From assembly GCA_025352125.1 (NCBI GenBank), contig JANXTZ010000044.1:148345-212344 (forward strand): a DNA stretch of 64,000 nucleotides, given 5' to 3'. Below are positions 1-17,800 of this stretch, one piece after another. The translations under genes and the position numbers were made by a program. A model generated the notes under the pieces. The model searched no databases. It was not told the DNA's origin and saw only the letters and a program-made list of their open reading frames with translations. Positions within the stretch are counted from its first letter, which is position 1. Every line of letters starts with the position of its first letter. The stretch is from Deinococcales bacterium. GTDB taxonomy: Bacteria; Deinococcota; Deinococci; Deinococcales; JAAFIG01.

Positions 1-751
1 AGGGACTGTCCTGGGTGATCGGATGCACCACCGTCCAGGACAAATTGAAAAACGCAACTTTTTGCCGCTCGAGTTTTAACTGGTAAAACTTGCGAACTTG
101 AGCACCCTTGATGTTCTCAAACCAGGAAAGTGTGACCAGGGCTTCGATGTCAAGCACTTCGCTTTGTAAACCATTCACCACCCGAATCATCCAACCCATG
201 CCATTTTGGTACGGCGCAAACAACATATTCTTGGAAAACAAAATTCGGGTCATCGGTTTGGAGAATCTGGCAAACAACAATCCTGTCGCCAATGCCACAG
301 CCAACAAACCCACAAAAGCCTCGATGGTCGCCACAATGTTCGCCGCAAGGCTGGCAGGCGCAACATGTCCATAACCAATCGTGGACAGCGTTTGGACACT
401 AAAGAAAAAACCGCGCCAAAACCGATTCTCGAGCACCAGATTTGAACCCGCTTGAAGTGCATCTGCCCCACAAAACCAGTACAGACTTGCGAAGAACAGG
501 TTGATCAAAATAAACGTGGCTGCCAAAAAACCAAAAAACAAGGCAGGCTGCAAGGTGATCAACCCGTAAAAAATATTCTGACTCGAGAGCCACCCCAAGC
601 CCAAACGCCTGGTGTTAAATGAACCGTCCGAATTGACGAACCTGGCAGTGCTGCGTTCTGCCGCCACCCGCCCAATGCCAAGGTCTTCGTTGGTATCGCT
701 GGCTCGAGATTCTGATTCGGTGATCTTGCTCGAGGAATTGGTGTCTGTCAT
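1..751 (-). CDS. Inward-rectifier-type K+ channel (KirBac-like); N-terminus complete, C-terminus runs off the window start
   Basis: Own translation of the minus strand from ATG (751-749): MTDTNSSSKITESE... It has two TM helices flanking a pore helix with selectivity filter TIGYG, then a beta-rich cytoplasmic domain (LFAPYQNGMGWMIRVVNGLQSEVLDIEALV...). No stop codon occurs before position 1, so it is absent from the supplied ORF track. Confidence 0.85.
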   Translation of the reverse strand, partial: MTDTNSSSKITESESRASDTNEDLGIGRVAAERSTARFVNSDGSFNTRRLGLGWLSSQNIFYGLITLQPALFFGFLAATFILINLFFASLYWFCGADALQAGSNLVLENRFWRGFFFSVQTLSTIGYGHVAPASLAANIVATIEAFVGLLAVALATGLLFARFSKPMTRILFSKNMLFAPYQNGMGWMIRVVNGLQSEVLDIEALVTLSWFENIKGAQVRKFYQLKLERQKVAFFNLSWTVVHPITQDSP

Positions 752-856
752 GGGTTCAGAATACGACAACCATCTAGTTCAAACTCGAGCGACATTCCAA
801 TTCAAAAATTCAGCTCCAGATTATCCCGTGACAGATTTGAGATTTGCCCAACGAGA

Positions 857-1366
857 ATGAGCACACATGTTATGCTCGAGATGCTTTACAAATTAATTGC
901 TTCAAGAGGAGCACGCATGGCAGATGTTATCATCCAGGTATCCAAGGACGGCAAGCACCTGGTCACGGGCGACGGCAGAACCATCTACCGTTTTGTCCCC
1001 ATGAAATCCGACCCCGAGCATTTGTACATCCCCTGGGGCGGAAATTTTCCACCGTACCTGCTCGAGTTTATTGCCACCTGGAGTCCGTTGATTGGTGTTC
1101 CCAAAGCTGGTAACGGTGTGAAACAAGAAAACCTGAGCGACTTTGACCGCGATGGTCCGCCCGACGAGGGTTTAACGCAAATCAGTTACCGTGGTTGGTG
1201 GTTGTATTTTTACCCAACCGCCGCACCAGATTCGATCCATGAGGTTCCAAAATTGTTCCAACTGGTGTCACCAAGCATTGCCCCGCAACGGGTAGGAATG
1301 TCAATTGTTGGTGCAGATGATCCAGATGACGTTGGCGGTCCACCTTACATTTTTGGTGGTCCTTGA
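857..1366 (+). CDS. Hypothetical protein (possible alternative start at 917, MADVIIQ...)
   Basis: 169-aa ORF with normal composition and no recognisable motif. It overlaps the STAND gene tail-to-tail by 22 nt. Confidence 0.45.
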   Translation: MSTHVMLEMLYKLIASRGARMADVIIQVSKDGKHLVTGDGRTIYRFVPMKSDPEHLYIPWGGNFPPYLLEFIATWSPLIGVPKAGNGVKQENLSDFDRDGPPDEGLTQISYRGWWLYFYPTAAPDSIHEVPKLFQLVSPSIAPQRVGMSIVGADDPDDVGGPPYIFGGP

Positions 1367-4128
1367 TTTTCATAAATATTTGACAATAGGATTTCACTTA
1401 CTAAATCTTGAATTAATTGTTCAGAAACAAATTCTCTAGTCGCTTTTTCTGAAAAAGAGAGATTTAATTGATTTTGAATCATTTGAATCTCTCTCTTTTG
1501 AGAAACTTGAAGTAAAGGATAACTTAAAATAGCTTTTATTATTTTTGCTGATTTCTCAGTATCTCCCACTAAGCCTTTTAGGTATGCAAAAAAAATTAAC
1601 GTATCTATTTTTTGAGTAATATGAGGTAAGTTTTTTGCTTCAAACAAAGATTTAAATAAGTATTTTTCTGCAAACAAAAATTGTTTACGTTTAATTTCAA
1701 TACAACCTAGCATTAGATAAGCACCGCAAGTAACTTCAAAAATTGATTGATCTTTTAATACATTAAGTGTAAGATTTGCAAAATACTCTGACTCTTCATA
1801 GTCTTGTAAATAGTATAAGCCTATGCTCAAATTATGATAATAATAAGGTATCGCCATTTTTTGTAAGCTTGTTTTTGATATCAAATCTAAACCAATCTTT
1901 AATGATTCACATATTTTTTTGTAATTTGGATTTAGTAAAACAGAGTATAGAATGCCTGAAAAATTTAAACGAGCTAAAATTTCCGTACTATAATCTTTTA
2001 CTCTTGACGAATTTAATATTATTTCACTATAATAAGTTATAGCCTTAGTAGTATTTCCTCTTTCGGATTCTAGAATCGCTAAATTGCTTAAACAAGTTAT
2101 TTCTCGAGCTTTATCATCATGTTTTCTAATTAACATAAGCGCGTTTTCGTAAAATTGAATTGCTAATGTATACTCAGCTACCGTTGCTGCGATAGAACCA
2201 AGTATATTTAATGCTTTAGAGAGCGTAATTTCATTTAAACTTCCAACTTTGGATGCCAAACTTTTAGCTTGTATTGCATTGTTTCGAGCTTCTGTGATTT
2301 TACCCAATCTAAATTGTAACCAAGCTGCACCGACTAACATGGGAGCCAATGCAAGTGATGGTGCACCGTAATTCTCGAGTGCGGTAATTGTGGTTTCAAA
2401 CCAACTCAAGCCTTCGCCAAATCTTGCATTTTGATCGAAAAACACCACAATGTCTTGAACTTTCTCGAGCCTTGCAGCTTGATTGTTTTGAATCGCGTGC
2501 GACCATGCGGCGCGAATGTTCTCGAGTTCGGTTTCGATGTTGCGCATGGCGTTCGCGGCTTCAGACCCACGAATTTTGGCGGTGTCTCGCTCGAGTCTGG
2601 TCAGGTAATAATCTTGGTGGCGTTCAAAACTGCCCGCAAAATCGGGAAGCTCGAGCAGTTTTTCAAGCGTGAATTGGTACAGAAGCGGGTGAATGCCGAA
2701 ACGATTTGTCGCGTCGCGTTGCACCAAACTTTTGTCGCTCAGGTTTGCCAAGGTCTGCAATTTGGTGGCGTTGATTGCCCCAACGGCTTCTCGGGTTGCG
2801 CCACCCCTGAACACGGCAAGTTGCGCCAGGGCGTGTTGCTCGAGGGTGGAGAGTATCTTCCAGGAATGCTCGAACACGGCGCGGATGCTGCGGTGACGTT
2901 CGGGCGTGTCGCGCAATGTGTTGTCGAGCAAGTCAAGGTTATCCGCCAAATCTTGACGGAGTTCGGATAGGCTCAAGGCGCGTAAAAGGGGCACGGCAAG
3001 TTCGATGGCAAGCGGAAAACCGTGCACGAGTTTGCAAATCTCGAGCGCATCGGCACGGTCTTCAAAAGTTTGGATTTGCCTTCCAATTCTGTTCGCACGG
3101 TCTATAAACAACTCGAGCGCGGCATCTTGATCGGACCCTGCACCCAGACCCTCGAGTGGCGTGATCCATTCGCCGTGCAAATTCAGGCGTTCGCGGGAGG
3201 TCACGATCAGGCGCAAATTCGGGCAACGCTCGAGCAGCAGGGTCAGGTGAAAACCGTGTTCGGTCAGGTGCTCGAAGTTGTCGAGCACCAACAAGATTTG
3301 ACGTTGCCCAATGCCTTCCATGATTTGCTCAAAGACTGGCGCGTCGGGTTTTAAATTGATTTTAAAAACTTGCACGATTCGTGACAGCAGCGCTTCCAAG
3401 TCATTGATCGCCTCGAGCATGACCATCAAGACACCATCTTTAAAAAGCTCGAATTGCAAACTTTGCCGTGCCGTCTCGAGCGCCAGACGGGTTTTGCCCA
3501 CACCGCCAGGTCCAACCAGCGTCACCAGTCTGGCTTCCTCTTGCAGCAACTCGAGCACGTGCGCAGACTCTCGGGCGCGTCCAACAAAACTGGTCAAGCT
3601 CTGCGAGAGGTTGTTCGGAATGACCAACGGCTTTAAAGTCTCGAGGTTGAGGCTTTCGAGTTTGGCAATGCGCTGCAACCAAGCTGACTCGAGGTTTTCA
3701 AAGCCAATGATGTTCCGTGCCGCCTCGAGATGCTGACTTACCGCAAGCTGCTCAACCGCCCGTTCTGCCAGCGTCAAGTGCGCCTCTATAATGCCTCGAG
3801 CCAAATACGCTCGCATGGTTTCAATCCACTCGAGCAACTCTGGGTGAACCTCGGGAATGTCCAGATTCTCGAGGAACGGCGCAGTATAAAGTTCGACCGC
3901 CCGTTCCAAATTTTGATGCTCGAGCGCAAACAAAACCTCTGCTGCATCGCAATCCACAGCCGCTTTCAACCTCGAGCCAGAACCCCCAAACGCCGTTGGC
4001 ACAATTTGTCGCACACGGTTGATCGTGCTGCGCAAACTGCCCGCCGCGTCACTGGCATTCGGGAAGAACAACTCGCGCAAATGATCGCGGGTTTGCTCAC
4101 CCTCGAGCGCCACATACGCCAGCAACAC
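1345..4128 (-). CDS. STAND NTPase regulator: SARP-type wHTH/BTAD + NB-ARC P-loop ATPase + C-terminal TPR array
   Basis: The N-terminus LVLLAYVALEGEQTRDHLRELFFP...LRSTINRVRQ and ELYTAPFLENL match the SARP/BTAD pattern. Walker A is LVGPGGVGKTRLA. The long C-terminal region is helical TPR-like repeats. The frame stays open upstream to ~4236 and encodes LKVLGNLHLEPFGFAQAKP, but with no ATG/GTG/TTG, so the true start is uncertain. Confidence 0.8.
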   Translation of the reverse strand: MLLAYVALEGEQTRDHLRELFFPNASDAAGSLRSTINRVRQIVPTAFGGSGSRLKAAVDCDAAEVLFALEHQNLERAVELYTAPFLENLDIPEVHPELLEWIETMRAYLARGIIEAHLTLAERAVEQLAVSQHLEAARNIIGFENLESAWLQRIAKLESLNLETLKPLVIPNNLSQSLTSFVGRARESAHVLELLQEEARLVTLVGPGGVGKTRLALETARQSLQFELFKDGVLMVMLEAINDLEALLSRIVQVFKINLKPDAPVFEQIMEGIGQRQILLVLDNFEHLTEHGFHLTLLLERCPNLRLIVTSRERLNLHGEWITPLEGLGAGSDQDAALELFIDRANRIGRQIQTFEDRADALEICKLVHGFPLAIELAVPLLRALSLSELRQDLADNLDLLDNTLRDTPERHRSIRAVFEHSWKILSTLEQHALAQLAVFRGGATREAVGAINATKLQTLANLSDKSLVQRDATNRFGIHPLLYQFTLEKLLELPDFAGSFERHQDYYLTRLERDTAKIRGSEAANAMRNIETELENIRAAWSHAIQNNQAARLEKVQDIVVFFDQNARFGEGLSWFETTITALENYGAPSLALAPMLVGAAWLQFRLGKITEARNNAIQAKSLASKVGSLNEITLSKALNILGSIAATVAEYTLAIQFYENALMLIRKHDDKAREITCLSNLAILESERGNTTKAITYYSEIILNSSRVKDYSTEILARLNFSGILYSVLLNPNYKKICESLKIGLDLISKTSLQKMAIPYYYHNLSIGLYYLQDYEESEYFANLTLNVLKDQSIFEVTCGAYLMLGCIEIKRKQFLFAEKYLFKSLFEAKNLPHITQKIDTLIFFAYLKGLVGDTEKSAKIIKAILSYPLLQVSQKREIQMIQNQLNLSFSEKATREFVSEQLIQDLVSEILLSNIYENQGPPKM

Positions 4129-4408
4129 CAGCGGCTTGGCTTGAGCAAACCCAAACGGTTCGAGGTGTAAATTCCCCAGTACCTTTAAGCGCGGTAAAGT
4201 ATTGTTTTCTCGAGAAGGCGTTTTAATGCACTCAGTTTACCTCGAGATGAACTGAATGTTGTCAACTGCGTGAAGAATTAAGAAATTCGAGCTTTGAAAT
4301 TGCTGGGGATTCTGGCATTCCAAAACAAATTGGATTTTTGGTCACTCGAGCCTCGCTTGTCGCCACACAAAACAGAACCAAAGCTGGGGATGAGAGGGAG
4401 CAGGTGGT

Positions 4409-4443
4409 GATTATTTCACTCGAGCATCTCGAGTGAAATAATC
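4409..4443. promoter_or_regulatory. Perfect 16-bp inverted repeat with 3-nt loop (GATTATTTCACTCGAG cat CTCGAGTGAAATAATC), 15 nt upstream of the HAD start codon
   Basis: Read directly. The arms are exact reverse complements and each contains a CTCGAG. It lies in the divergent STAND/HAD intergenic region. Operator or 5-prime UTR hairpin; function unknown. Confidence 0.4.
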
Positions 4444-4457
4444 GGTACACTGAACAC

Positions 4458-5231
4458 GTGATTAAAGCCGTTTTATTCGACCTCGATGAAACCCTGATTC
4501 TTGACGAAGCCGTGTCGCTTCACGCGTTTCAAATGGTGGCGCTCAGTGTGACCCGAGATGCAAGCAAAGCCGCACAACTTGCGCACGCGGCGGAACAACA
4601 TGCAAAACGATTGTGGCAAACCCTGCCAGTTCCCGCACTCGAGTACGCCGCGCAAATTGGTCACAGTGCGCTCGAGGGCTTGTGGGCGGTGTACGACCCG
4701 AAGCTCGAGTTTGAGGTTTTACTCGAGGCGCACATTGTTGATTACCGTTTTGAAACCTGGAATGCGGCGCTTGTCGATTGCGGTTTGAAGGCGGATGCTC
4801 GAGGGTTAGAAAAATTGTGGCGAGGTTTGCGTGCCAGGTATCCGCTTTATCCAGGCGCGGACGAGTTGCTGGTATATTTAAAACCAAATTACAAACTTGG
4901 CATCGTCACGAACGGCGTGGCTTGTTTGCAACGCCAGAAATGGCATGGTTGCGGACTCGAGCCGTGGTTTGATGCGGTGGCGATTTCTGGAGAGCTTGGT
5001 ATTGGTAAACCCAATCCAGCGATTTTTGAATGGATTGCAGGTGAGTTAAAAGTGCCGCTCGAGACTTGCGTCGTGGTTGGTGACAATGCTGACCGCGATG
5101 TTCAGGGCGGCATCAACGCAGGAATCAAAACCGTCTGGATTGATCGCGGCTTCAAACCGCGCACGGCAATTGCCACGCTCGAGGTCAAACAATTGCTCGA
5201 GATGCTGCCCTGGCTCGAGGCGCAAACCTGA
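4458..5231 (+). CDS. HAD-superfamily hydrolase (subfamily IA-like)
   Basis: GTG start. Motif I is VLFDLDETL. Also IVTNG, GKPNP and the motif IV region VVGDNADRDVQG. Confidence 0.85.
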   Translation: MIKAVLFDLDETLILDEAVSLHAFQMVALSVTRDASKAAQLAHAAEQHAKRLWQTLPVPALEYAAQIGHSALEGLWAVYDPKLEFEVLLEAHIVDYRFETWNAALVDCGLKADARGLEKLWRGLRARYPLYPGADELLVYLKPNYKLGIVTNGVACLQRQKWHGCGLEPWFDAVAISGELGIGKPNPAIFEWIAGELKVPLETCVVVGDNADRDVQGGINAGIKTVWIDRGFKPRTAIATLEVKQLLEMLPWLEAQT

Positions 5232-5311
5232 CTTTTGTCATGTGCTCCCTCTGACAGTCTGCACTGTTTTAAATATGCGTCAACCCCGAGAATGACCACA
5301 GGAGGAACACA

Positions 5312-6205
5312 ATGTCTTTGGCGGTGGAACTCGAGAATGCAAGTAAATCTTTTGGCAGTGTTCAGGCACTTCGTAACGTGTCGCTCGAAGTTGAGGCGGG
5401 TGAGGTGGTCGCGTTTCTGGGACCGAACGGCGCAGGCAAAACCACCGCCATCAGCATCATGCTTGGTCTGCGTTCACCGACTTCGGGTCATGCCAGAATT
5501 TTTGGGCAGAACCCCAGAGAACCCAAAAACCGTGCGCGTATTGGCGTGATGCTGCAAGAATCTGGCGTGCCAGGATTGCTGAAGGTGCGCGAGTTGATTC
5601 GGTTGTTCACCCAGTTTTACAATGCGCCCTTGCTGGTTTCCAAAGTGCTCGAGATGGCGAACTTGACCGAGAAAAAAGACGCGATAGCCTCCACGCTTTC
5701 GGGTGGTCAAAAGCAACGACTTTATTTTGCATTGGCAATTTGTGGCAACCCAGATGTTTTGTTTCTGGACGAACCCAGCGTGGCGCTCGATGTCGAATCG
5801 CGTCGCGCGTTCTGGCAAGAAATTTCTGGCTTTGCGAAAACTGGTAAAACTGTGATTCTGACCACGCATTATCTCGAGGAAGCCGACGCGCTGGCGAACC
5901 GAATCATTGTCATCAACAAAGGCGAGATCGTGGCGCAGGGCAGTCCCGCGCAAATCAAATCGCGGGTTGGTGGCAAGAACGTTTCGTTCAAACTCGAGGT
6001 TGGAAATGCGGATGCGCTCGAGAATTTACCGAATGTACAGCGTTTCAGTAAGACTGGTGAAAGCATCAATCTGTACACTTTAGAGCCTGAAAAAGTCTTG
6101 CAAGAAGTTTTTGCATCTGGTTTGCAAATTTCAAACCTCAGCGTTGCAGGTGCGGGACTCGAGGAAGCCTTCATGGAAATCACCGAACAGGGAGCAAAAC
6201 AATGA
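5312..6205 (+). CDS. ABC transporter ATP-binding protein (ABC-2/drug-exporter type)
   Basis: Walker A GPNGAGKTT, signature LSGGQKQR, Walker B LFLDEP. Confidence 0.9.
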   Translation: MSLAVELENASKSFGSVQALRNVSLEVEAGEVVAFLGPNGAGKTTAISIMLGLRSPTSGHARIFGQNPREPKNRARIGVMLQESGVPGLLKVRELIRLFTQFYNAPLLVSKVLEMANLTEKKDAIASTLSGGQKQRLYFALAICGNPDVLFLDEPSVALDVESRRAFWQEISGFAKTGKTVILTTHYLEEADALANRIIVINKGEIVAQGSPAQIKSRVGGKNVSFKLEVGNADALENLPNVQRFSKTGESINLYTLEPEKVLQEVFASGLQISNLSVAGAGLEEAFMEITEQGAKQ

Positions 6206-7005
6206 CTGGTCTGAATCCTGAAAATGCGAATGCTCGAGCCTACAATCCGTTCAAAGGTTTGGGCTTTCAGTTGTACTGCGAACTGATTCGTTTATTGCGC
6301 AACCCAGGTTTTTTGATTCCGACGGTTTTGTTTCCGATCATGTTTTTTACGCTGTTTGGTTTGCCCAACGCCAAAGAAAATATTGGCAATGGCGTGACGG
6401 TTGGCGCGTACCTGCTGGCATCGTATGGGACTTACGGGATGCTTTCGGCAGCCTTGTTTGGCTTTGGGGTTGGCATTGCCGCCGAGCGTGGTCTGGGTTG
6501 GAACCGTTTGACTCGGGCAACGCCGATGCACCCGATCATGTACTTCAGCGCCAAAATTTTGACCGCCCTGTTGTCTGGGCTGGTGACACTGACCGCATTG
6601 TTCGCCTTCGGAATTCTGGTTGGACACATTTCGCTCCCGCTCGAGACTTGGCTGTTGCTGACCGCCCGAATCATGCTCGGCATGATGCCGTTTGTGGCGC
6701 TTGGCTTGTTCATCGGTTATCTTGGCAATCCGCAAAGTGCCACGCCGATCACTCAACTTATTTTCTTGCCGATGTCGTTTGCTTCAGGCATTTTCTTGCC
6801 AATCAAAAATTTGCCGCAGTTTGTCCAAGACCTCGCGCCGTACCTGCCCGCGTATCACAGCGGTCAACTGGCATGGCATACTCTGGGTGCTGGCGACAGC
6901 GCTAGCCTCGACTCGCACATCATCTGGAATCTTGGCTTCACGGTGCTGTTCCTGGCATTGGCTGTCTGGGCATATAAACGCGACGAAGCCAAGCAATACG
7001 GTTAA
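6202..7005 (+). CDS. ABC-2 type transporter permease
   Basis: ATGA start/stop overlap with the ATPase gene. About six predicted TM helices. Confidence 0.8.
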   Translation: MTGLNPENANARAYNPFKGLGFQLYCELIRLLRNPGFLIPTVLFPIMFFTLFGLPNAKENIGNGVTVGAYLLASYGTYGMLSAALFGFGVGIAAERGLGWNRLTRATPMHPIMYFSAKILTALLSGLVTLTALFAFGILVGHISLPLETWLLLTARIMLGMMPFVALGLFIGYLGNPQSATPITQLIFLPMSFASGIFLPIKNLPQFVQDLAPYLPAYHSGQLAWHTLGAGDSASLDSHIIWNLGFTVLFLALAVWAYKRDEAKQYG

Positions 7006-7038
7006 AGTGTTCCTCGAGCTTTTCAGATTTGAGGTTGT

Positions 7039-8175
7039 ATGACATACCGACGCAATTGGACCCGCTGGTACCCGCTGATCTGGTTGGTCTTCCTCGGGTT
7101 GCCAATATCGGCGCTCTTACAAACACAACGCAGCCCGCTCGAGTACGTCTACGGATTTTCATTGATCGCTGCGTTTGTAGGGTTTTTTCTGTGGTCATTT
7201 TTCTGGAATCACAACGACGAGCATAAACTCGAGGCAGCTTACCGAATTCCCAGTTTGATCGGTATGGTTTTCAGTTACGTCGTGTTCGGTTTGATGTGGA
7301 AGTTGCTCAATGGTGATGGTTCGGCATTCGTTGTCTACGCGGGTTCGTTTGCAGGTTTTCAAAAAAGCAACCGCCCCTTGATTGTCAGTGTTGTTATTTC
7401 GTTTGCTCTGGCGGTTGCTTTTGCGTTTTTCGATGCCAATTGGTTTGTCTGGACGATTCCAATTTCGACCGTGATTGCTGCGCTGGGCAATCACAGTGCC
7501 TATCTGCAAATACAAACGTTTCGCAGATTGCAAAACTCGCAGGCGCAAGTGGCAAGCATTGCCAAGGTTGCCGAACGCGAACGGATTGCCCGAGATTTGC
7601 ACGACCTTCTAGGGCATACGCTTTCGGTGATCGTCTTAAAGTCAGAACTTGCCAGCAAACTTGCCGAAAAAAATCCTGCCAAAGCCATCGCCGAAATCCG
7701 CGATGTCGAACGCATCAGCCGCGAAGCCCTGTCAGAGGTGCGCAGCGCCGTGCGCGGCTACCGCTCGAGTGGACTCGAAGCCGAACTGGCGAGCATTTCC
7801 CTGGCGCTTGAGGCAGCACAAATCAAGCTCGTGCCATTCGTGATGCCTTTAGAGCTTGAATGGGCAACCGAGCAGACCTTGGCGTTTATTTTGCGCGAGG
7901 CGATCACGAATGTGGTGCGGCACAGCAACGCCAGAACCTGTTTTGTTTCCCTCGAGCAATGCGGTCAATTTGTGCTGCTTGAGGTTTACGATGACGCGCA
8001 ACTCGAGCTTAAACCAGGCAACGGCATTGCTGGAATGCGAGAACGGGTGGCAGCCCTGGCAGGAAAATTCTCGCTTGTCACTGTGATTGGCAAGCGGGGA
8101 ATCAGCGTTAAACTTGCCCTTCACAGTTCCACCGATTCCAGTCTCAATCCTGCGCAACTCGAGGTACTTCCATGA
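7039..8175 (+). CDS. Sensor histidine kinase, HisKA_3 (DesK/NarX/LiaS-like)
   Basis: N-terminal TM helices. H-box ERERIARDLHDLLGHTLS. C-terminal HATPase region (NVVRHSNA...GNGIAGMRERV). Confidence 0.85.
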   Translation: MTYRRNWTRWYPLIWLVFLGLPISALLQTQRSPLEYVYGFSLIAAFVGFFLWSFFWNHNDEHKLEAAYRIPSLIGMVFSYVVFGLMWKLLNGDGSAFVVYAGSFAGFQKSNRPLIVSVVISFALAVAFAFFDANWFVWTIPISTVIAALGNHSAYLQIQTFRRLQNSQAQVASIAKVAERERIARDLHDLLGHTLSVIVLKSELASKLAEKNPAKAIAEIRDVERISREALSEVRSAVRGYRSSGLEAELASISLALEAAQIKLVPFVMPLELEWATEQTLAFILREAITNVVRHSNARTCFVSLEQCGQFVLLEVYDDAQLELKPGNGIAGMRERVAALAGKFSLVTVIGKRGISVKLALHSSTDSSLNPAQLEVLP

Positions 8176-8218
8176 TCGAATATTTTAAATTTTTAACAAT
8201 ACTCAAAGGTATACGCCC

Positions 8219-8821
8219 TTGATTCGTGTGATCCTCGCCGAAGACCAAGCCCTGGTTCGCGGCGCACTTTCTGCACTGCTCGAGCTTGAGGACGACATTG
8301 AAGTGATCTTCCAAGCCCAGAACGGTCTTGAAGCGCTCGAACAAACCCAAAGACTTCAACCCGATGTGCTCCTGACCGATATTGAAATGCCCAAAATGAC
8401 GGGCTTGGAACTCGCGCTCGAGGTCAAAAAACAAAACCTCAAAACCAAAGTGGTGATCGTCACCACCTTCGCTCGAGCAGGGTACTTGCGGCGTGCACTC
8501 GAGGCTGGGGCGACAGGATACTTGTTAAAGGATGCACCCGCCGACGACCTTGCCGACGCCGTGCGCCGCGTTCATGCGGGCGCTCGAGCGATAGACCCGA
8601 CGCTGGCGCTTGAAGCCTGGAGCGAAGCCGACCCACTGACCGACCGTGAACGCCAGGTGCTGCGGTTTGCAAGTGAGGGTCAGAGCAGTCTCGAGATTGC
8701 TGGCAGCCTGAAACTTTCTGAAGGCACAATCCGAAATTATTTATCCGAAGCGATTGCCAAACTTGGTGCGAACAACCGCGTTGAAGCGGCGCGGATTGCC
8801 AGAGAAAAAGGTTGGTTGTAG
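8219..8821 (+). CDS. Response regulator, NarL/LuxR family
   Basis: REC domain (VILAEDQ...LLTDIEMPKMTG) plus LuxR HTH (LTDRERQVLRFASEGQSSLEIAGSLKLSEGTIRNYLSEA). Confidence 0.9.
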   Translation: MIRVILAEDQALVRGALSALLELEDDIEVIFQAQNGLEALEQTQRLQPDVLLTDIEMPKMTGLELALEVKKQNLKTKVVIVTTFARAGYLRRALEAGATGYLLKDAPADDLADAVRRVHAGARAIDPTLALEAWSEADPLTDRERQVLRFASEGQSSLEIAGSLKLSEGTIRNYLSEAIAKLGANNRVEAARIAREKGWL

Positions 8822-8875
8822 GGTGCGCCCCGTGCACTAAGGACGCGTGAATGACGGTGCACAAGGCGCATCCTA
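8819..8875. other. Nested hairpin immediately after the response-regulator stop codon
   Basis: Outer stem TAGGGTGCGCC / GGCGCATCCTA (11 bp, one G-T pair). Inner stem GTGCAC / GTGCAC. The 19-nt loop TAAGGACGCGTGAATGACG loosely resembles the loop of the 37-nt repeat family. Confidence 0.35.
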
Positions 8876-8950
8876 CACAATTGTTGTGGTTTCTCGAGAG
8901 GTGGTATTTCCTGATTGTGAAACTTGAATACCACCGAATACTTTTCCATT

Positions 8951-9142
8951 GCGCCTATAGCTCAATGGTTAGAGCACCAATCTTCTTGACCATAAAACGT
9001 ACCTGTCTTGATCTTGATCCCAAACATGCACCTGATGGGCGGGATCGCTGACGGGCAAGGTCGCTTGTTGACCATAAAACGCACCTGACGGGCATGGTCG
9101 CTTCTAAATTGGCGCATACGGGTTCGAGTCCCGTTAGGCACA
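8951..9142 (+). tRNA. tRNA-Arg(TCT) gene interrupted by a 119-nt insert in the anticodon loop (possible pseudogene or intron-bearing gene)
   Basis: Hand fold after removing 8984-9102. Acceptor GCGCCTA/TAGGCAC has one C2-A71 mismatch. D arm GCTC-AATGGTTA-GAGC. Anticodon stem CCAAT/ATTGG with loop CT|TCTAA. Variable loop CGCAT. T arm ACGGG-TTCGAGT-CCCGT. Discriminator A. No encoded CCA. Confidence 0.7.
8984..9102 (+). repeat. Three copies of a ~37-nt hairpin repeat, one nested inside another, forming the tRNA insert
   Basis: Copy a is 8984-9005 plus 9050-9065 and is split by copy b, 9012-9049 (stem GATCCC/GGGATC). Copy c is 9066-9102 (stem GACCAT/ATGGTC). The consensus is TCTTG-stem-AAAACGCACCTGACGGGC-stem-CGCT. 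Confidence 0.8.
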
Positions 9143-9225
9143 TCAACTTTTAAAGCCCAACTTTCAACAAATACTTTGCATTGAACTCGAGATCGGCTTT
9201 TGTAGAATTCGGGTACGATGAATTT

Positions 9226-9654
9226 ATGAAACGTGGCATTGCGCACATGGCTTTGGTCGTTCGTGATTACGATGAAGCCATCGCTTTTTACACGCAGAAA
9301 CTTGGCTTTGTGGTGCTCGAGGACACGTACCAGCCCGCCCAGGACAAACGCTGGGTGGTGATCGCGCCAGCCGAATCTTGCGGCGCGACCTTGTTGCTGG
9401 CTCGAGCCTCCACACCAGAGCAGGAAGCATTTATTGGTCATCAGGCTGGTGGTCGGGTTTTCTTGTTTCTCGCCACCGATGATTTTTGGCGCGATTACCG
9501 AGGGTTTCTTGCCAAGGGAATACAATTTGTGCGTGAACCCAAGACCGATGATTACGGCACGGTTGCGGTCTTCAAAGATTTGTACGGCAACCTTTGGGAT
9601 TTGCTCGAGTTTGGTATGGATCACCCAATGCGGAAAAGGTTGGAAATTTTTTAA
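9226..9654 (+). CDS. VOC-family (glyoxalase/bleomycin-resistance/dioxygenase fold) protein
   Basis: MKRGIAHMALVVRDYDEAIAFYTQKLGF... and C-terminal FKDLYGNLWDLLE are typical of the family. The ATG at 9226 is preferred over the TTG at 9181. Confidence 0.8.
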   Translation: MKRGIAHMALVVRDYDEAIAFYTQKLGFVVLEDTYQPAQDKRWVVIAPAESCGATLLLARASTPEQEAFIGHQAGGRVFLFLATDDFWRDYRGFLAKGIQFVREPKTDDYGTVAVFKDLYGNLWDLLEFGMDHPMRKRLEIF

Positions 9655-9669
9655 ACTCGCGCTTTTGAT

Positions 9670-10527
9670 TCACTGTTGCACATCCACCGAAACCTCAACC
9701 CCAATCGATTCCACGCCCCCACCGCGCCGCAACCCGCGCAAAGGCGGCACGTCGTCGTAATCACGTCCATGCCCAATTTTGATATGGGATTCATTGATGC
9801 GGGTGTTGTTGGTCGGGTCAAACCCAAGCCAGCCGTAACCTGGTAACAGGCACTCGAGCCACGCGTGGGTGGCTTCCGCGCCCACAAAATCCGCACCAGC
9901 ATAAACGTAACCACTGACATACCGCGCCGGAATGCCGCCAGATCGTGCAACCGCAAGCATGGCGTGGGCGTAATCCTGACAGACGCCAATGCCGCCTTGC
10001 ACAAACTCGAGCAGTGGCGTGTCCACTTTGGTGACACCAGATTGATACCTAAACCTCGAGTGCAAATGCGAGTTCAGACCGTCCAGGTAGGCGACATAAT
10101 CTTCTTCTGGCTCGAGTTGATGCCAGCCCAAAATGCTTGCCCAGTCAAACTCGAGCGGCACGCGAGGGCTGGTGGTCAGGTATTCGATGTTCGGTAACTT
10201 GTGCGCCTCGAGCACGCTGGCGGGTTGCCCTATCGGTTGGGTCATGGCGTGCGTGACCACCAGAGCTTTGGTTTCAATTCTCAAAACCGTGTGTTTTTCG
10301 AGCACGTGAAAGTGATGTAAGGTCGTGCCGTAATAATCCAGGTGCGAGTACACGGGAACGTTTGGCTCGAGTTGCAATCGAAACGACAGCACGGTCTGCC
10401 TCGAGTCTTCAATCGGTTGCAGGCGCAGTTCGTTAAACGAATCAAAGGCGGGTTCGGGGTAACGGTATTCGGTGATGTGATGGATGTTGGCTCGCACCAG
10501 AAGACCTCTAAGAATGGCAGAAAACAA
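9670..10527 (-). CDS. Transglutaminase-like cysteine protease family protein (N-terminal Bact_transglu_N + core)
   Basis: Core motif GVCQDYAHAMLAVARSGGIPARYVSGY with downstream His/Asp (THAWLE...FDPTN). Confidence 0.85.
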   Translation of the reverse strand: MFSAILRGLLVRANIHHITEYRYPEPAFDSFNELRLQPIEDSRQTVLSFRLQLEPNVPVYSHLDYYGTTLHHFHVLEKHTVLRIETKALVVTHAMTQPIGQPASVLEAHKLPNIEYLTTSPRVPLEFDWASILGWHQLEPEEDYVAYLDGLNSHLHSRFRYQSGVTKVDTPLLEFVQGGIGVCQDYAHAMLAVARSGGIPARYVSGYVYAGADFVGAEATHAWLECLLPGYGWLGFDPTNNTRINESHIKIGHGRDYDDVPPLRGLRRGGGVESIGVEVSVDVQQ

Positions 10528-10552
10528 AATTCAAGGTGATCATTTTTCGCAT

Positions 10553-11485
10553 TTAATTGCTAAAATACGCTTGGTACACCGCCGCACCCACCGCGTTAAA
10601 ATCGCCCAGCAGTTGCTCGAGGCTTGGGTTTTCAAGGTCCAAAATCTGGTCAATCTGCGCGTACTCGAGTTTTGCGGCGAGCCAGCCGACTTCGCGCAGG
10701 GCGTCGCGCTTGCCGCTGCGGTTGGCTTGGGCAATCACTTCCAGAGCGGCGCATAATGTTTCGGCGCAGTACCTGACGCTGCGCGGAAAGTCGGGTTCGA
10801 GCAGCAAAAATTCGGCGATGCCGCGAGGCTCGAGGCGGGCTTTGCTTTTGCGGTACGCCTCGTAGGCGCTGGCGGTTTTTAAAACTGCCATCCAACGGTG
10901 ATTCTCCAGCGCTTCGGCGACGGCTTTTTCGCCCGTGTTTTTGTAGCGCACTTGCAAGAGTCGTAACAGTGCATCGCCGCGCTCGAGGTGCTGACCCGCC
11001 TGCAAGAATTGCCAGCCCTGATCGCGGGGCAGCGTGGCGAAGGCAATCCCGAAAAACAGATGGCTGGCGTCGCGCACGGTCACGCAGTATTGGTGCAACT
11101 CGTCGTTGGGCAGAACGTGTTCGGTGCCAAAGCAAAGTTTGTGGTAGGCGCTGTTGATGCACTCCCACATCTCGCTCGAGATGCGGTCACGTAATGCTCG
11201 GGCGTTCTCGCGGGCTTGGGCAATGCAACTGCGGATGCTCGAGGGATTGCTGGGGTCGAACGCCAACCAGTTTGGGACATTTCTGGAATCGGCGCGGTAG
11301 CCTTTGGCTTTGAATTCTTCTTGTGAACCCGTGATTGCCAGCAGGGGAGACCATTGCTGCGTGAACAGCCCTGCACCCTCGAGCGTGGCGTAATAGTTCA
11401 CGTCCAGTAAGCGCGCAATGTTTTCGGCGCGTTCAATGTACCGCGCAATCCAGAATAAATTTTCGGCAACCCGAGAGAGCATCAA
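10553..11485 (-). CDS. Alpha-E domain protein (DUF403)
   Basis: [28 protein letters not shown] is the signature N-terminus of the alpha-E family. It overlaps the upstream ATP-grasp gene by 4 nt. Confidence 0.85.
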
Positions 11486-12996
11486 TCATCACCGCCAGTG
11501 TTTTGCGATTGACTTTGAGATTGGGATTGACTTTGCCCCGACTGTGTTTCCTCGAGCACCCAGGTGTCTTTGCTGCCGCCGCCCTGACTGGAATTGACGA
11601 CCAGGCTGCCGCGCTTTAATGCCACGCGGGTTAAACCGCCTGGGACAATCGTGATTTTTTTGCCGACCAGAATGTAGGGGCGCAAATCCACGTGGCAGGG
11701 TTCAAACGTTCCAGTGTCGGGGTAGTACGTCGGGTGTCTCGAGAGAGCGATGGTGGGTTGTCCGATGTAATTGCGCGGATTGGCTTCAACTTTTTTCATG
11801 AACTCGGTAATTTCTTTTTTGTTGGATGCCGTGCCGACCAACATGCCGTAGCCCCCAGCCTCGCCGACGGCTTTGATCACCAGTTTTTCGGGGTTGGACA
11901 GCATTTCTGCCAAGCCCTCTTTGTCCCAACCCAGGAGCGTTGGGACGTTGGGCAGGATCGGGCGCTCGGACAGGTAATACTCGATCATTTTTGGCACGTA
12001 GGCGTAAATTGCCTTGTCGTCTGCCACGCCCGCACCTATCGCGTTTGCCAGCGCCACGCGACCACTGCGGTATGCCTCGAGCAAGCCTGGCACGCCGAGG
12101 CTCGAGTTGGGATTGAACGCCAGCGGGTCGAGGTAATCGTCATCGACGCGGCGGTAAATCACATCCACCTGCTCGCGCCCAGACGTGGTGCGCATCCAAA
12201 CTTTGCCCTCAGTGACAAACAAATCCCTGCCCTCGACCAATTCCACCCCCATTTGCTGCGCCAGAAAAGCGTGCTCGAAATAGGCGCTGTTGTACATGCC
12301 AGGGGTCAGCACGACAATGGTTGGCTCCTCGACATCTCTGGGCGCGAGCGAGCGCAGCACCTCGAGCAGCACGGTGGTGTAATGCTGGACTGGGCGCACA
12401 CCCTGGTCTTTGAACAGACTCGGCAGGGTGCGGGTCATGGCGACGCGGTTTGCCAGCAGGTAACTGACGCCCGACGGGGTGCGCAGATTGTCCTCGAGCA
12501 CCATGTACGTGCCGTGCTCGTCTCGAATCAAATCTGAACCGACGACGTGGGTGTACAAGCCGTGCGGCAGGTTGACGCCGTGAACCTCGCGGCAAAAATG
12601 GCTGGCTGAAAGCACCAATTCCCTGGGGACAACGCCGTCGTTCAAAATCTCGCCCTTGCCGTAAACATCGCGCAAAAAGGCGTTCAGTGCCAGCACCCGC
12701 TGGGTCAAACCTTTCTCGAGGTGCGCCCATTCTTGCGCGGGAATGATGCGCGGCACAGGGTCAAACGGAAAGGTGCGTTCTGTCCCCTCGGTATCGCCGT
12801 AAACGGTAAAGGTAATGCCTTGATTGCGGAAGCTCAAGTCAGACAGCGTTCTTCGTCGTTCAAATTCTTTGCGCCCCAAAGCTTCAAGTCGCTCGAGCAC
12901 TTGTGCATAATGTGCGCGTGGTGCACCGTTGTCCTCGAACATTTCATCGAAAAACCCGTTTGGTGCGTAACCGTTAAAAACGCCCTCGTTCCCCAT
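11482..12996 (-). CDS. Circularly permuted ATP-grasp type 2 protein (DUF404/DUF407)
   Basis: The length and conserved blocks ([41 protein letters not shown]) fit this family. The unusual C-terminal tail is [19 protein letters not shown]. Confidence 0.8.
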
Positions 12997-13347
12997 GAAT
13001 AAGTATACAGAGTCGTTTCAAGCCTGACAAGTTTCTCGGGTTACGGTCTTCAAATGTATTAAGGGTTTTGTGATTGAAGTTTAGGCGTTCGATCAAAGCT
13101 TTTCTTGACATGTTCATTTTGGTGTTGATTTCTTGAGTTCCGATTCGATGTAAATCTGATTGTGTTTGGAACGAGGTTTCTGTTGACTGGTAAGCCTTAT
13201 GGGGTATTTGGCGAGGGTAAAAATACGTTTGACACCAGATTATTAAAGAAGTATTTTGTTGAAGACAAAACGATTTAAGCGTCTCGAACCAAACATCACC
13301 TCAAATCACAACGTCATGGTTTCTCGAGATTCAAAAGGAGATTGAGC

Positions 13348-13752
13348 ATGAATAAAGCCACCGAAAGTCGTACCGTCAGTGATTGGAGCATCAATGTTGT
13401 AACGCTTTTTGTTGAAGATTTGGCTGCCACAAAACAGTTTTACCAAGAGGTTTTTGGATTATCCATCACCTTCGAGGATGAAAATTCAGCCGTGTTTAAG
13501 TTCAAAAACATGATGATTAATTTGTTGAAGGTGACAGAGGCAAACGAACTGATTGAACCTGCTATGGTGGCAAACCGTGAATCGGGAGCGCGTTTTGTCT
13601 TCACCATCAATGTCGAGGATGTCGACGCAAGCTGTGAAGACCTGAGAAAACGCGGCGTGGTGTTGCTAAACGGTCCAATGGATCGACCCTGGGGCATTCG
13701 CACCGCCAGCTTCAAAGACCCAGGCGGTTACATTTGGGAGATCGCCAAATGA
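13348..13752 (+). CDS. VOC-family (glyoxalase-like) protein
   Basis: SD AAAGGAG lies 8 nt upstream of the ATG at 13348. Family-typical motifs are VTLFVEDLAATKQFYQEVFGL and C-terminal FKDPGGYIWEIA. Confidence 0.8.
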   Translation: MNKATESRTVSDWSINVVTLFVEDLAATKQFYQEVFGLSITFEDENSAVFKFKNMMINLLKVTEANELIEPAMVANRESGARFVFTINVEDVDASCEDLRKRGVVLLNGPMDRPWGIRTASFKDPGGYIWEIAK

Positions 13753-13793
13753 TCTTGACTGTGCCTCATGTTTGGGCAATCTAGCGTCTAAAT

Positions 13794-15161
13794 TTAAGGT
13801 TTTGGAACTAAATTCTTTGCTTCGAGTGCCAATGCCGCGTACTTGCTGCCCGCATCTTTGCCCAAGAACACCACAATGTTATTTGCTCCCTCAGGGTAGC
13901 GGTACGGCGTGCTGACGCTGACGCCCAGCACTTTGGCATAAAATTCGGCACTCGACGCATCGCCCCATGATCGACGCATGATTTGCGTGGGCGTGCTGGC
14001 AGGCTCGAGGGTGATGACGTTGGCACTTAACCAGCCATGACGCTTTAAGTAATCTGCCATCGCCTCGCCCAAGCCCGGAATACCACTTTGGTTGACCACC
14101 GTCGGAGCGCTGGTTGGCAGCACCAGGTCGCTTGAGGTTGGCGCTTGAGTTAAAACTGTCTCGAGTTTGGCTTTGATGTCGGCGTCGTTTGGAATCAGGT
14201 ACGAACCGGCAATAATTTGCTGTCCAGCCACATTATTTTCGGTGGTTGGGAGGGTGTCAAAGTGCGGGGTCAAACCCCTGGCGGACGCCAGCATTTTTTG
14301 CACCAAATCTGGGGTCACGTTGGTGATGACATCGTTTTGCAATCCCGATATCAAAGTCGGCAACAAGCCAAACGCGGCTGGGCTTTTGACCTTCGCCAGC
14401 AGTTGTCCAATCACATCTTTGCCACGATCCATGCGGGCGTAATCGCTGCCAGTGCCGTGACGAAAACGCAAATATCCGACCGCTTTCTTGCCGTCCAGAT
14501 GCGAATTTCCGGCGGGCAGATCAATATAGAGATTGGCGGCGCGGTCTGTGTATTTCATGGCTTCGGGAAGGTTGACGTTAACACCGCCCAAAGCATCGAT
14601 GACCTTCTCGACCAGTTCAACATTAAAAACCACATAGTAATCGATTCCCACGCCAAGAAGCGACTCCGCCGAGGCTTTTAATTGCGCCACACCGCCTTGC
14701 AGGTAAGGCTCTTCAGCGCCTGGGTCTTTGAGCGCCGTGAATCCAGCCTCGAGCATCGCCGCTTGACCGCCGTCAAAGAAACTCGCGTTGATTTTGTGAT
14801 AGCCGTATTTGTCGTTGACCAGGGTATCTCGGGGAATGGACATCACATCCAAACGCCCAGGTTGAACCCGCACAAACATCATCGTGTCGGTGCGTCCATT
14901 GTAGCGTTCTGCCCCTTTGCAGGGTTCGGCTGCCAAACCGATTGGTCCAAAACCAGGTTTGCAGTAGGCGATGTCTCGCCCAGCAATGATCATGTTGAAG
15001 GTTGGAACGTCACCGCTCGGCGTGTACCAGTTGGGGGTTGCTATGCTGCGTTTTTCGGGTTTGGCTTCGACGATGTAATACGACGCAAGGCTGAGAATGG
15101 CTGCCATCAAGCCACCGACTTGAAAGGCGCGACGCCAGCTCATGCGTTTCTCGAGGTGCAA
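13794..15161 (-). CDS. LytR-CpsA-Psr (LCP) family protein with LytR_C-like C-terminal domain
   Basis: N-terminal TM anchor. LCP core RTDTMMFVRV...SIPRDT...KINASF...LRFRH...D..R. Confidence 0.85.
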   Translation of the reverse strand: MHLEKRMSWRRAFQVGGLMAAILSLASYYIVEAKPEKRSIATPNWYTPSGDVPTFNMIIAGRDIAYCKPGFGPIGLAAEPCKGAERYNGRTDTMMFVRVQPGRLDVMSIPRDTLVNDKYGYHKINASFFDGGQAAMLEAGFTALKDPGAEEPYLQGGVAQLKASAESLLGVGIDYYVVFNVELVEKVIDALGGVNVNLPEAMKYTDRAANLYIDLPAGNSHLDGKKAVGYLRFRHGTGSDYARMDRGKDVIGQLLAKVKSPAAFGLLPTLISGLQNDVITNVTPDLVQKMLASARGLTPHFDTLPTTENNVAGQQIIAGSYLIPNDADIKAKLETVLTQAPTSSDLVLPTSAPTVVNQSGIPGLGEAMADYLKRHGWLSANVITLEPASTPTQIMRRSWGDASSAEFYAKVLGVSVSTPYRYPEGANNIVVFLGKDAGSKYAALALEAKNLVPKP

Positions 15162-15257
15162 AACAATTTAGAATTGAAGGTCAACATGCTTTTCTCTCAA
15201 TCTCTCGAGCCTTGCCAAATACCAGCATAATTTAGGATATGAGCCTGAGGTGATAGT

Positions 15258-15941
15258 TTAGTCGCCGCACTCGAGATCATCGGGAATTTGACCCTCGAGC
15301 TTCAGGCGCTCGAACGCCGCCAGGGTGCGCGGGTGAACGGGCACACCCTTTTTTTGCAGGTATCTCACTTTGCACGCCACCGCCTCAGCAAAAGCTTTTG
15401 GCAAGTCCTGAAATGCCAATTCCCTGATGTGATGGTTGACCCCGCGCCCTGGTTCGGTCACATCGGCAACGTACAGGCACATTGCCAGCAATTTGTCCTC
15501 TCGAGGGGCGGTGGTGTGGTCTTCGACGGCATCCAGAATCTCGGTGTCGTTAAAGCCGTAACCTTCCAAGATCGCCCGTCCAGCCCGCCCATGAACCGCC
15601 AGCGGGTGCGCGGCATCCATCTCGGATTCTGGAGGCGCAAGACGCAGCAATTCCTCGCCTGGCAAATCCCTGGCGATGTCATGCAAGACCCCCGCCAGAT
15701 AGGCTTTGAATTCGTGCAAACCGTTGGAGTGCGCAATGTCTTTGGAGAGTGCTGCCACCCGCAGAACATGCTCGAACCGTTCTGGCTTGACCATGGTGCG
15801 CACCCGCTCGAGCCAGAAGTTTATCGTGTCCGAACCTTCGATGTCAGTTTCGGTAAAGTTGGTGTTTGGTGATGAACTGGTTGACGCTTTTGGGGACGAG
15901 GTACTCAATCGGTGCTCCTTGGGCAATCCGGGCGCGAACAA
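15258..15941 (-). CDS. yqeK: HD-domain hydrolase, YqeK family (bis(5-nucleosyl)-tetraphosphatase-like)
   Basis: RFEHVLRVAALSKDIA...LAGVLHDIARD is an HD motif, and the gene lies directly downstream of nadD as in many genomes. The listed start overlaps nadD by ~100 nt, so the real start is probably nearer ~15850. Confidence 0.75.
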   Translation of the reverse strand: MFAPGLPKEHRLSTSSPKASTSSSPNTNFTETDIEGSDTINFWLERVRTMVKPERFEHVLRVAALSKDIAHSNGLHEFKAYLAGVLHDIARDLPGEELLRLAPPESEMDAAHPLAVHGRAGRAILEGYGFNDTEILDAVEDHTTAPREDKLLAMCLYVADVTEPGRGVNHHIRELAFQDLPKAFAEAVACKVRYLQKKGVPVHPRTLAAFERLKLEGQIPDDLECGD

Positions 15942-16470
15942 TCGTGCTCGAGGCGTTCACACCCAGCCAGTGAAGCTCGAGTGTCCCTGAAGGCAGGGCT
16001 TGTAAAGTATACGGCGCAAAGACCGATTTTGGTTCAGTAACAGCTAAAGAAACACCTCCAGAATTCTCACGGTCTGCGACCACCAAGGTTGCCAGGCGCA
16101 AAATCGTTTCGGGTTCAAACCATGTTTCAAGCGACATTGCCGCGTCGCGCCCCGTCAGCAAGAAAATCTGGCTCTCAGGCTCGAGGTCATGTAGGCGCTC
16201 GAGGGTCTGGGCGGTGTAATGCGGACCTGGGAAGTCAAGCTCGAGGCGTGTGGCTTCCAAAAGCGGGTACTCGAGTGCGGCACGGCGCACCATCTCAAAA
16301 CGTTGCTCTGGCGTGGCTCTGGGGGTTTTGTGCGGCGGGTCGCCGGTGGGCGAGAGCAGTACCTTGTCCAGCCCGAGTTGATAGCCAAATTCGATGGCAG
16401 CCCCCAAATGACCCCAGTGAATCGGGTCGAAGCTGCCACCGTAAAAACCAATTTTACGCGTTTGGATCAA
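15844..16470 (-). CDS. nadD: Nicotinate-nucleotide adenylyltransferase
   Basis: GFYGGSFDPIHWGHL is the (T/H)xGH nucleotidyltransferase motif. ISSTIVR-like SSTIVRARI lies near the C-terminus. Confidence 0.9.
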   Translation of the reverse strand: MIQTRKIGFYGGSFDPIHWGHLGAAIEFGYQLGLDKVLLSPTGDPPHKTPRATPEQRFEMVRRAALEYPLLEATRLELDFPGPHYTAQTLERLHDLEPESQIFLLTGRDAAMSLETWFEPETILRLATLVVADRENSGGVSLAVTEPKSVFAPYTLQALPSGTLELHWLGVNASSTIVRARIAQGAPIEYLVPKSVNQFITKHQLYRN

Positions 16471-16508
16471 GTAACCCTCGTGCCGTCATGATACTCGAGC
16501 GCCCAGTC

Positions 16509-17759: not shown

Positions 17760-17771
17760 GGTTCACCATTC

Positions 17772-17800
17772 AAAAACCCTCGAGCTTTGACACTCGAGGG
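17772..17800 (-). terminator. Rho-independent terminator built from two CTCGAG sites
   Basis: The minus strand reads CCCTCGAG-tgtcaaag-CTCGAGGG followed by TTTTTG, 18 nt after the stop of the 17818..18528 gene. Confidence 0.7.

Follow-up and report, generated by a model that had tools for sequence, protein, structure and literature searches.

CTCGAG as a probable highly iterated palindrome and the excess of Leu-Glu in proteins of an uncultured Deinococcales lineage

Known iterated motifs and the CTCGAG population

Highly iterated palindromes (HIPs), namely HIP1 (GCGATCGC) and its alternates, have been described in cyanobacteria (Elhai 2015, PMC4390886; Xu, Lawrence and Durand 2018, PMC5861425; Delaye et al. 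2011, PMC3025956), and a hexameric one, GGCGCC, is on record in Calothrix. An imprint of short DNA motifs on the proteome has been described for the uptake signal sequences (USS) of Pasteurellaceae and the DNA uptake sequences (DUS) of Neisseria (Findlay and Redfield 2009, PMC2817400). In this work we have analyzed the hexamer CTCGAG in a stretch of 64,000 nucleotides from a Deinococcales bacterium (assembly GCA_025352125.1, contig JANXTZ010000044.1, positions 148,345 to 212,344; hereafter the window). An earlier note on this DNA had pointed to the copies present in a gene for a HAD hydrolase and had proposed that the palindrome sits in codon phase as Leu-Glu (LE), inflating this dipeptide in the encoded proteins. 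Very probably, CTCGAG is a hyper-abundant palindrome of the HIP type in this lineage, owed to a frame-blind force at the DNA level that is filtered by protein tolerance. Our literature search returned no report of CTCGAG as a HIP, nor of any HIP in Deinococcota or Deinococcales. The phenomenon combines two described things, the cyanobacterial HIPs and the proteome imprint of uptake sequences, and its notable aspects are the density, the size of the effect on the proteome and the avoidance of the same word in the sister genus.

A pattern search located 436 CTCGAG sites along the window (positions 1..64000), those of the HAD gene being a sample of this population, as against 11.0 ± 3.3 in dinucleotide-preserving shuffles; the runner-up among palindromic hexamers reached 48 copies. 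Coding DNA contained 6.7 sites per kb and non-coding DNA 7.4. The 71 non-overlapping long open reading frames (ORFs) contained 379 sites (242:59:78 in phases 0, 1, and 2) and the other 57 were intergenic. Sequences flanking the sites had approximately the background composition, with a weak preference for G at position -1 and for C at position +1, and the most frequent 10-mer context was present 12 times. A mobile element or a longer repeat was discarded as the source of the sites, since no conserved flank was found and individual sites were gained or lost among sister species; the flanks and the lineage-specific gains show that the sites arise in situ.

The window shares with the HIP class a GC-rich perfect palindrome that is over-represented tens of times (the class being defined by more than 10-fold), that is enriched in every frame as well as in non-coding DNA and so is no peptide motif, that occurs as dispersed single sites generated in situ outside any longer repeat, and that is conserved between related genomes beyond the conservation of codons and control motifs. 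In both cases the motif is scarce in compositionally atypical, putatively acquired segments. CTCGAG differs from HIP1 in sequence, in lineage (Deinococcota vs. cyanobacteria) and in density, with about 7 sites per kb compared with roughly 1 per kb for HIP1. The HIP1 literature examined the frames mainly to exclude a peptide function and did not emphasize the protein imprint, whereas here LE is doubled and 25% of Glu is found within LE.

With USS and DUS the window has in common that a short motif building up in coding DNA approximately doubles the encoded peptides (tripeptides in PMC2817400), that poorly conserved amino-acid positions are preferred and the choice of frame follows coding compatibility, and that genes without homologs are also without the motif. 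Uptake sequences are, in contrast, non-palindromic words of 9-12 bases, present at ~0.5-1 per kb, whose role in uptake specificity has been demonstrated, whereas CTCGAG is a 6-base palindrome at ~7 per kb that lacks an extended asymmetric consensus. The affected unit is here a dipeptide and the share of the proteome is much larger, about 4.8% of residues being encoded by codons that overlap a site.

Avoidance of restriction-site palindromes is a feature of bacterial genomes, reportedly described by Gelfand and Koonin in 1997 and by Rocha et al. in 2001. The likeness lies in the 6-base type II palindrome and in the effect on all frames, which is seen for CTCGAG itself in Deinococcus; the sign in the window is the opposite, with a 50-70-fold enrichment instead of a depletion.

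Reading frame, Leu-Glu excess and amino-acid replacements

In the 52 genes supported by Pfam or NCBIfam families, CTCGAG sites were distributed as 215:43:65 among phases 0, 1, and 2. Expected numbers came from a first-order Markov model with a period of three, fitted to the same coding sequences after the motif positions had been masked; it predicted 4.05, 0.82, and 0.95 sites in the three phases, as compared with 215, 47, and 71 observed. The observed distribution departs from 1:1:1 (P = 5e-33), in agreement with the skew toward phase 0 that the earlier note had claimed from the HAD gene. Enrichment over the masked null was nevertheless 53-, 57-, and 75-fold in phases 0, 1, and 2, and 69-fold in non-coding DNA. 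Applied to unrelated bacteria, the same null gave an observed to expected ratio (O/E) of 0.9 in every phase, which validates it. In addition, the split among phases matched that of the hexamer in unrelated bacteria without HIPs (57:15:12; chi-square P = 0.30). This indicated that the majority of sites in phase 0 reflects ordinary coding compatibility multiplied by a uniform, frame-blind factor. A special targeting of codon phase was rejected, enrichment being about equal over the frames and non-coding DNA; phase is a consequence and not, as had been suggested, a property of the motif. That a palindrome aligned to codons is in phase on whichever strand is coding is trivially true.

The ORFs of at least 150 amino acids contained 274 LE dipeptides, as compared with 124 ± 9.8 (maximum 154) when residues were shuffled within each protein, and the 52 family-supported genes contained 275 vs. 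123 expected. The O/E for LE was 2.22, whereas the reverse dipeptide EL remained at 1.0; thus the doubling described for peptides encoded by uptake sequences is also found for LE (2.2 vs. 1.0). LE accounted for 1.67% of dipeptides (true Deinococcus, 0.59%; other bacteria, 0.67%), and so, far from equaling that of motif-free relatives, its frequency was 2.5-2.8 times as high. The spelling of the dipeptide changed in parallel: in the window 78% of LE were encoded by CTCGAG, a share that was 3% in Deinococcus and 8% among other bacteria. When Glu follows, Leu is written CTC in 84% of cases, as compared with 10.8% in other contexts; GAG likewise makes up 86% of the Glu codons that come after Leu and 35% of the remaining ones. 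LE pairs took in a quarter of the Glu residues and 15% of the Leu residues. The STAND/NB-ARC-TPR protein and ArgH, which the earlier note had singled out as rich in LE, contained 25 and 9 of these dipeptides (12.6 and 3.7 expected, respectively). The other frames left their own imprint. The pattern [SPTA]-R-[VADEG] displayed an O/E of 1.40 vs. 0.83-0.86 in the comparison sets, with 39-54% of these tripeptides carrying the motif in the window and in four sister species, and S-[SR] an O/E of 1.28 vs. 1.02-1.09. All three frames therefore inflate the peptides that they encode.

The coding sequence for the HAD-IA family hydrolase (4458..5231, + strand; GTG start, 257 amino acids plus stop) was assigned by family search and gave an AlphaFold 2 model with a pLDDT of 96.5. 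Its 10 sites (13 per kb) represent the top density among the larger genes of the window; nine of them are in phase 0 (CTC GAG, encoding Leu-Glu) and one in phase 1. The gene is no outlier, as this 9:1 split lies within expectation for the 65% of phase 0 sites in the window (binomial P = 0.08). The protein has 10 LE (3.9% of dipeptides), as compared with 2.6 predicted from its own composition (L 13.6%, E 7.4%); nine are spelled CTC GAG and the remaining one, L117-E118, TTA GAA (4806..4811). These counts, the 10 sites and the nine in-phase starts coincide with those of the earlier note, which had also read the out-of-phase site correctly as GCT CGA GGG (A-R-G) and had placed its start at 4799, one base away from the true one (4798..4803).

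Comparison with 50 distant orthologs separated old from new dipeptides among the in-phase sites of the gene. LE is ancestral at L72-E73 (4671..4676; LE in 28/50 orthologs), which is therefore a synonymous recoding, and L89-E90 (4722..4727; 24/50) is ambiguous but probably ancestral. The other seven are derived. L61-E62 (4638..4643), in a helix, replaces AD, GE, or ID, with LE in 0/50 orthologs; L83-E84 (4704..4709), at a helix N-terminus, stands where orthologs have IP, VP, or IA; and L167-E168 (4956..4961) stands for LL or LA. The position of L201-E202 (5058..5063) is variable (LE in 5/50), and L241-E242 (5178..5183), in a strand, corresponds mostly to VE. In the C-terminal helix, L247-E248 (5196..5201) takes the place of RE, AE, or RA, and L253-E254 (5214..5219) that of LR, LL, or LQ. 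In the model, helices hold 8 of the 10 LE, and none falls on an invariant catalytic residue. Among 120 homologs, the number of LE was 7-11 at identities of at least ~62% and averaged 3.2 in the group with 51-59% identity, whose named members are Archangium metagenome-assembled genomes (MAGs). Within the set of homologs P0070-P0120, the nearest motif-free ones with a source name likewise came from Archangium (Myxococcota) MAGs and not from Deinococcus, and horizontal transfer may have contributed to the history of the gene.

The same mapping, in which the window proteins were aligned with orthologs from genomes known or inferred to be free of the motif, was extended to four more families. The nine in-phase sites of HAD were classified as one ancestral, one ambiguous, and seven derived, LE having replaced AD, IP, LL/LA, VE, RE/AE, LR, or variable residues. 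LysS (24 Deinococcus orthologs) had four ancestral, no ambiguous, and four derived out of eight; GreA one, one, and two out of four; aldehyde dehydrogenase (ALDH; 106 outgroups) two, two, and three out of seven; and ArgH (128 representatives) zero, two, and six out of eight. Taken together, 22 of the 36 in-phase sites were derived, eight corresponded to ancestral LE, and six were ambiguous. Since 22 sites stand at residues other than LE in motif-free relatives, amino acids have been changed, and the earlier proposal that the motif reshapes non-synonymous positions was thus borne out by the orthologs. The replaced dipeptides include AD, IP, VE, LP, MT, and LD; in ALDH, one derived site turned LP into LE in a column that is fairly conserved. 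Out-of-phase sites behaved in the same way, 8/10 being derived in ALDH and ArgH. All eight outgroup-conserved LE retained in the window were spelled CTCGAG, and synonymous opportunities are therefore saturated. Numbers of LE in the window vs. the outgroup mean were 10 vs. 3.2 for HAD, 9 vs. 4.4 for LysS, 5 vs. 2.3 for GreA, 9 vs. 4.7 for ALDH, and 9 vs. 3.6 for ArgH (42 vs. 18.2 in total). Derived sites were located mostly in high-entropy columns, with entropies mostly above the family means (1.07 in ALDH and 2.07 in ArgH). This preference for poorly conserved positions is the one known from the imprint of uptake sequences, and no invariant residue of HAD was hit.

Related genomes and the force behind the motif

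Judged by LysS, the window belongs to an uncultured Deinococcales lineage. Four sister species, represented by MAGs, showed 94-95% protein and 86-89% DNA identity to the window; two further MAG lineages, L005 and L067, had ~69% identity in LysS, and true Deinococcus 60-68%. The sister species had 7.3-7.5 CTCGAG sites per kb, L005 had 5.6 and L067 had 4.3, and two metagenomic lineages reached via HAD homologs, L069 (GC 64%) and L071 (GC 47%), had 5.7-6.8. In 36 Deinococcus loci around lysS (L006-L038, L043, L050, and L066) the motif was nearly absent, with 0-9 sites per 21 kb when ~7 were expected and zero sites in many of the 21-kb loci; the masked null gave an O/E of 0.2 in every phase, that is, ~5-fold avoidance. 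The excess of LE followed the motif, with an O/E of 2.1-2.7 in six other motif-bearing genomes (GC 47% to 64%); the values for the 36 Deinococcus loci and for other bacteria were 1.05 and 0.99, respectively. A further genome, L068 (GC 73%), which carries the HAD homolog P0063, presented 2.1 CTCGAG per kb with phases 37:2:2 and an LE O/E of 1.49. This looks like an effect of codon usage and not like a HIP, and illustrates, unlike the window, an excess that is purely driven by coding.

Sites were conserved to a larger extent than their surroundings. In the comparison with the four sister species, 84-95% of the sites, intergenic ones included, were conserved vs. 46-56% of control hexamers. Identity at third codon positions was 93-97% inside and 71-78% outside sites, and identity in non-coding DNA 98-100% inside and 77-83% outside. 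Individual gains and losses between species were also found, some of them changing the protein, such as CTGGCG (LA) to CTCGAG (LE) in the lysS gene of one species (L004). The sites in the lysS of L067, a more distant lineage, are its own and for the most part differ, and three conserved LE are still spelled TTGGAR there. This separate set of sites, along with the lineage-specific gains, indicated that accumulation is ongoing and independent in separate lineages.

These data bear on two explanations located in the protein or in its translation. Selection at the protein level would mean that the lineage favors LE for helix stability or environmental adaptation, the palindrome being a by-product of a preferred codon pair. 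LE is indeed helix-friendly, as its position in the HAD model illustrates, and the per-gene density of in-phase sites correlates with Glu content (rho 0.64), whereas that of out-of-phase sites does not. Such selection would not, however, enrich non-coding DNA and the frames that do not encode LE to an equal extent, nor conserve the non-coding sites; moreover, the other spellings of LE are depleted (59 vs. ~100-120 expected from relatives or from composition), EL is not enriched, and CTC and GAG are minority codons away from the motif. A translational codon-pair bias would have CTC-GAG favored by the ribosome or the tRNA pool, with no function of the motif in DNA, and could account for CTCGAG at 215 of 274 LE when ~28 are expected from codon usage. 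It can neither produce sites outside coding DNA or in the remaining frames nor raise the number of LE, and it leaves the perfect palindrome unexplained; Deinococcus, in addition, avoids the same hexamer 5-fold in every frame. Because of the enrichment in non-coding DNA and other frames and the conservation in non-coding DNA, both explanations were excluded, the chance that we would still leave to protein-level selection being very slight and that of a codon-pair bias slighter still.

The reading that we favor is a HIP-type palindrome under a frame-blind force. A force on DNA itself, indifferent to frame and coding status, would create and maintain CTCGAG in situ across the genomes of this uncultured Deinococcales clade, and within genes a new site would persist only if its residues are tolerated by the protein. 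For phase 0 these residues are Leu and Glu, both common and compatible with helices; less common peptides, [S/P/T/A]-Arg(CGA)-[V/A/D/E/G] or x-Ser(TCG)-[Ser/Arg], are required for the other phases. On this account about two thirds of the genic sites come to be CTC-GAG, and we infer that tolerance filtering explains the split among phases. The link between in-phase density and Glu content is in line with this reading too. Two routes have operated: a synonymous one, by which nearly every pre-existing LE has been respelled as CTC GAG, and a replacement one, by which amino acids have changed to LE, and to the Ser/Arg peptides of the other frames, at permissive and mostly variable positions. Both routes together raise LE ~2.2-fold over composition and ~2.5-2.8-fold over relatives. 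The frame-blind enrichment, the takeover of the codon pair, the excess of LE, the derived state of most sites, and their extra conservation are direct observations.

Several points weigh against this reading. The masked null expects slightly more phase 0 sites than were found (232:47:54 vs. 215:47:71; P = 0.04), which may reflect near saturation or an imperfect null. Genes were called as the greedy longest ORFs, with family support for 52 of the 71 and the rest possibly mis-framed, and the data consisted of 64 kb of the source genome and ~190 kb from relatives. The derived state was taken from the outgroup majority at 40-68% identity, with many columns variable in the outgroups. Finally, no gene for a methyltransferase, Vsr, or another driver was found among the ORFs of the 64-kb window by regular expressions for DPPY, NPPY, and PCQ/ENV and by a Pfam scan.

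The force itself could be selection on the function of the sites or a biased repair or gene conversion linked to a methyltransferase. In the first case, the sites would serve the cell in strand discrimination during repair, in the recognition of self DNA during uptake or recombination, or in chromosome organization. The conservation of the sites, 4-8 times better than that of neutral neighbors and extending to intergenic DNA, parallels the argument made for HIP1 (PMC5861425), and the motif holds at 4-7.5 per kb from 47% to 64% GC; a continual biased restoration, however, predicts such conservation equally well. The spacing of the sites gave signs in both directions. Pair-correlation analysis revealed a mild shortage of sites closer than ~45 bp, but spacing was otherwise near random (coefficient of variation 0.88 vs. 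0.96 simulated) and counts were over-dispersed at the 1-2 kb scale. A regular or periodic spacing as in HIP1 was considered and found not persuasive, as no periodicity appeared in the pair-correlation. Neither a function nor a recognizing protein was identified, and selection on site function is, in our judgment, possible though somewhat short of an even chance.

We give the same weight to a neutral molecular drive, that is, mismatch repair or gene conversion biased by its coupling to a CTCGAG-specific methyltransferase (XhoI/PaeR7I type), as in Elhai's model for HIPs. In cyanobacteria, alternate HIPs are accompanied by a methyltransferase whose specificity matches theirs (PMC4390886). Among type II recognition sites CTCGAG is a classic one, and its 5-fold avoidance in Deinococcus suggests that CTCGAG-specific restriction-modification enzymes have acted in the phylum and circulate in it. 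Variants of the motif that differ by one transition at positions 1/6 or 2/5 were raised 1.6-2.7-fold, and the transition variant at the central CpG, CTTGAG/CTCAAG, only 1.1-fold (baseline 1.3-fold); the lack of increase of this last variant is a weak hint and could reflect an efficient restoration of T:G to C:G. Differences from genome to genome, on the contrary, displayed no deficit of CTTGAG. The Dcm/Vsr very-short-patch repair of Escherichia coli enriches CCWGG against CTWGG and shares with the molecular drive a methyltransferase-linked repair that shifts oligonucleotide frequencies genome-wide toward the methylated site. Its effect remains under about 2-fold, as compared with 50-fold here, and we know of no comparable effect of this repair on a proteome. 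The genes that a molecular drive would call for were missing from the window, as noted above, and in the ORFs of ten related loci (~190 kb; regular expressions and Pfam) the search for a methyltransferase or Vsr gave only an unrelated Type ISP enzyme in L005. This 1123-amino-acid, Type ISP/IIG-like protein (L005 11853-15221, + strand), with Type_ISP_C, N6_Mtase, and Eco57I domains and an NPPY motif, is encoded directly downstream of lysS and is unlikely to recognize a 6-base palindrome.

A stronger claim, that a lineage-specific drive or selection for CTCGAG overrides purifying selection on proteins proteome-wide, with ~5% of residues in motif-overlapping codons and most of these changed, among them fairly conserved ones as in the Leu-Pro to Leu-Glu replacement of ALDH, seems to us rather unlikely. 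The 5-fold avoidance in the sister genus Deinococcus would imply an evolutionary switch, for example one in which a restriction-modification system gave way to a repair-coupled orphan methyltransferase.

Other features of the locus and significance

Two AT-rich segments of the window, 1061-2103 (GC 0.33) and 23997-24523 (GC 0.34), were free of CTCGAG, compared with a GC content of 0.52 overall; both are candidates for recently acquired DNA in which the motif has not yet accumulated. The first one makes up the 3' third of the NB-ARC/TPR STAND gene, and this gene looks compositionally chimeric. This gene was also found in an independent Logan assembly (L073), and the same locus is carried by the Logan assembly of SRR23617199. 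Among the highest densities of the window was that of a Uma2-family gene annotated as putative restriction endonuclease (22579-23076, + strand), with seven in-phase sites in 166 amino acids (14 per kb). Uma2-family genes recur in motif-rich genomes (L071 3243-3725 and 7987-8508). Apart from the motif, an Rfam search gave a full-length tRNA (45.7 bits) at 8951-9142 (+ strand) with an insertion of 122 nt in the anticodon loop, in which two direct repeats TTGACCATAAAACG(T/C)ACCTG are present. Without the insertion it would be a tRNA-Arg(UCU). A group I intron was discarded, 122 nt being too short, and ARAGORN called no tRNA over the window.

The window shows in quantitative terms that amino-acid sequence can be dictated by a preference for a DNA word, non-coding in nature: one in four Glu residues and one in seven Leu residues lie within a dipeptide that is mostly owed to the palindrome. 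The HIP phenomenon is thereby extended beyond cyanobacteria, at ~7-fold higher density. Richness in LE and the density of CTCGAG constitute a signature of the lineage that could flag recently acquired DNA and aid the binning of MAGs. Substitution models and analyses of the ratio of non-synonymous to synonymous substitutions (dN/dS) are biased at CTCGAG sites, and convergent gains of LE in separate lineages could mimic positive selection. Avoidance in a neighboring genus vs. enrichment here provides a comparative handle on whether HIPs are kept up by selection or by biased repair. If it did occur, the switch from avoidance to enrichment would have made the most abundant word out of a forbidden one, and the clade would be a natural experiment on a DNA-level force imposed on proteins.

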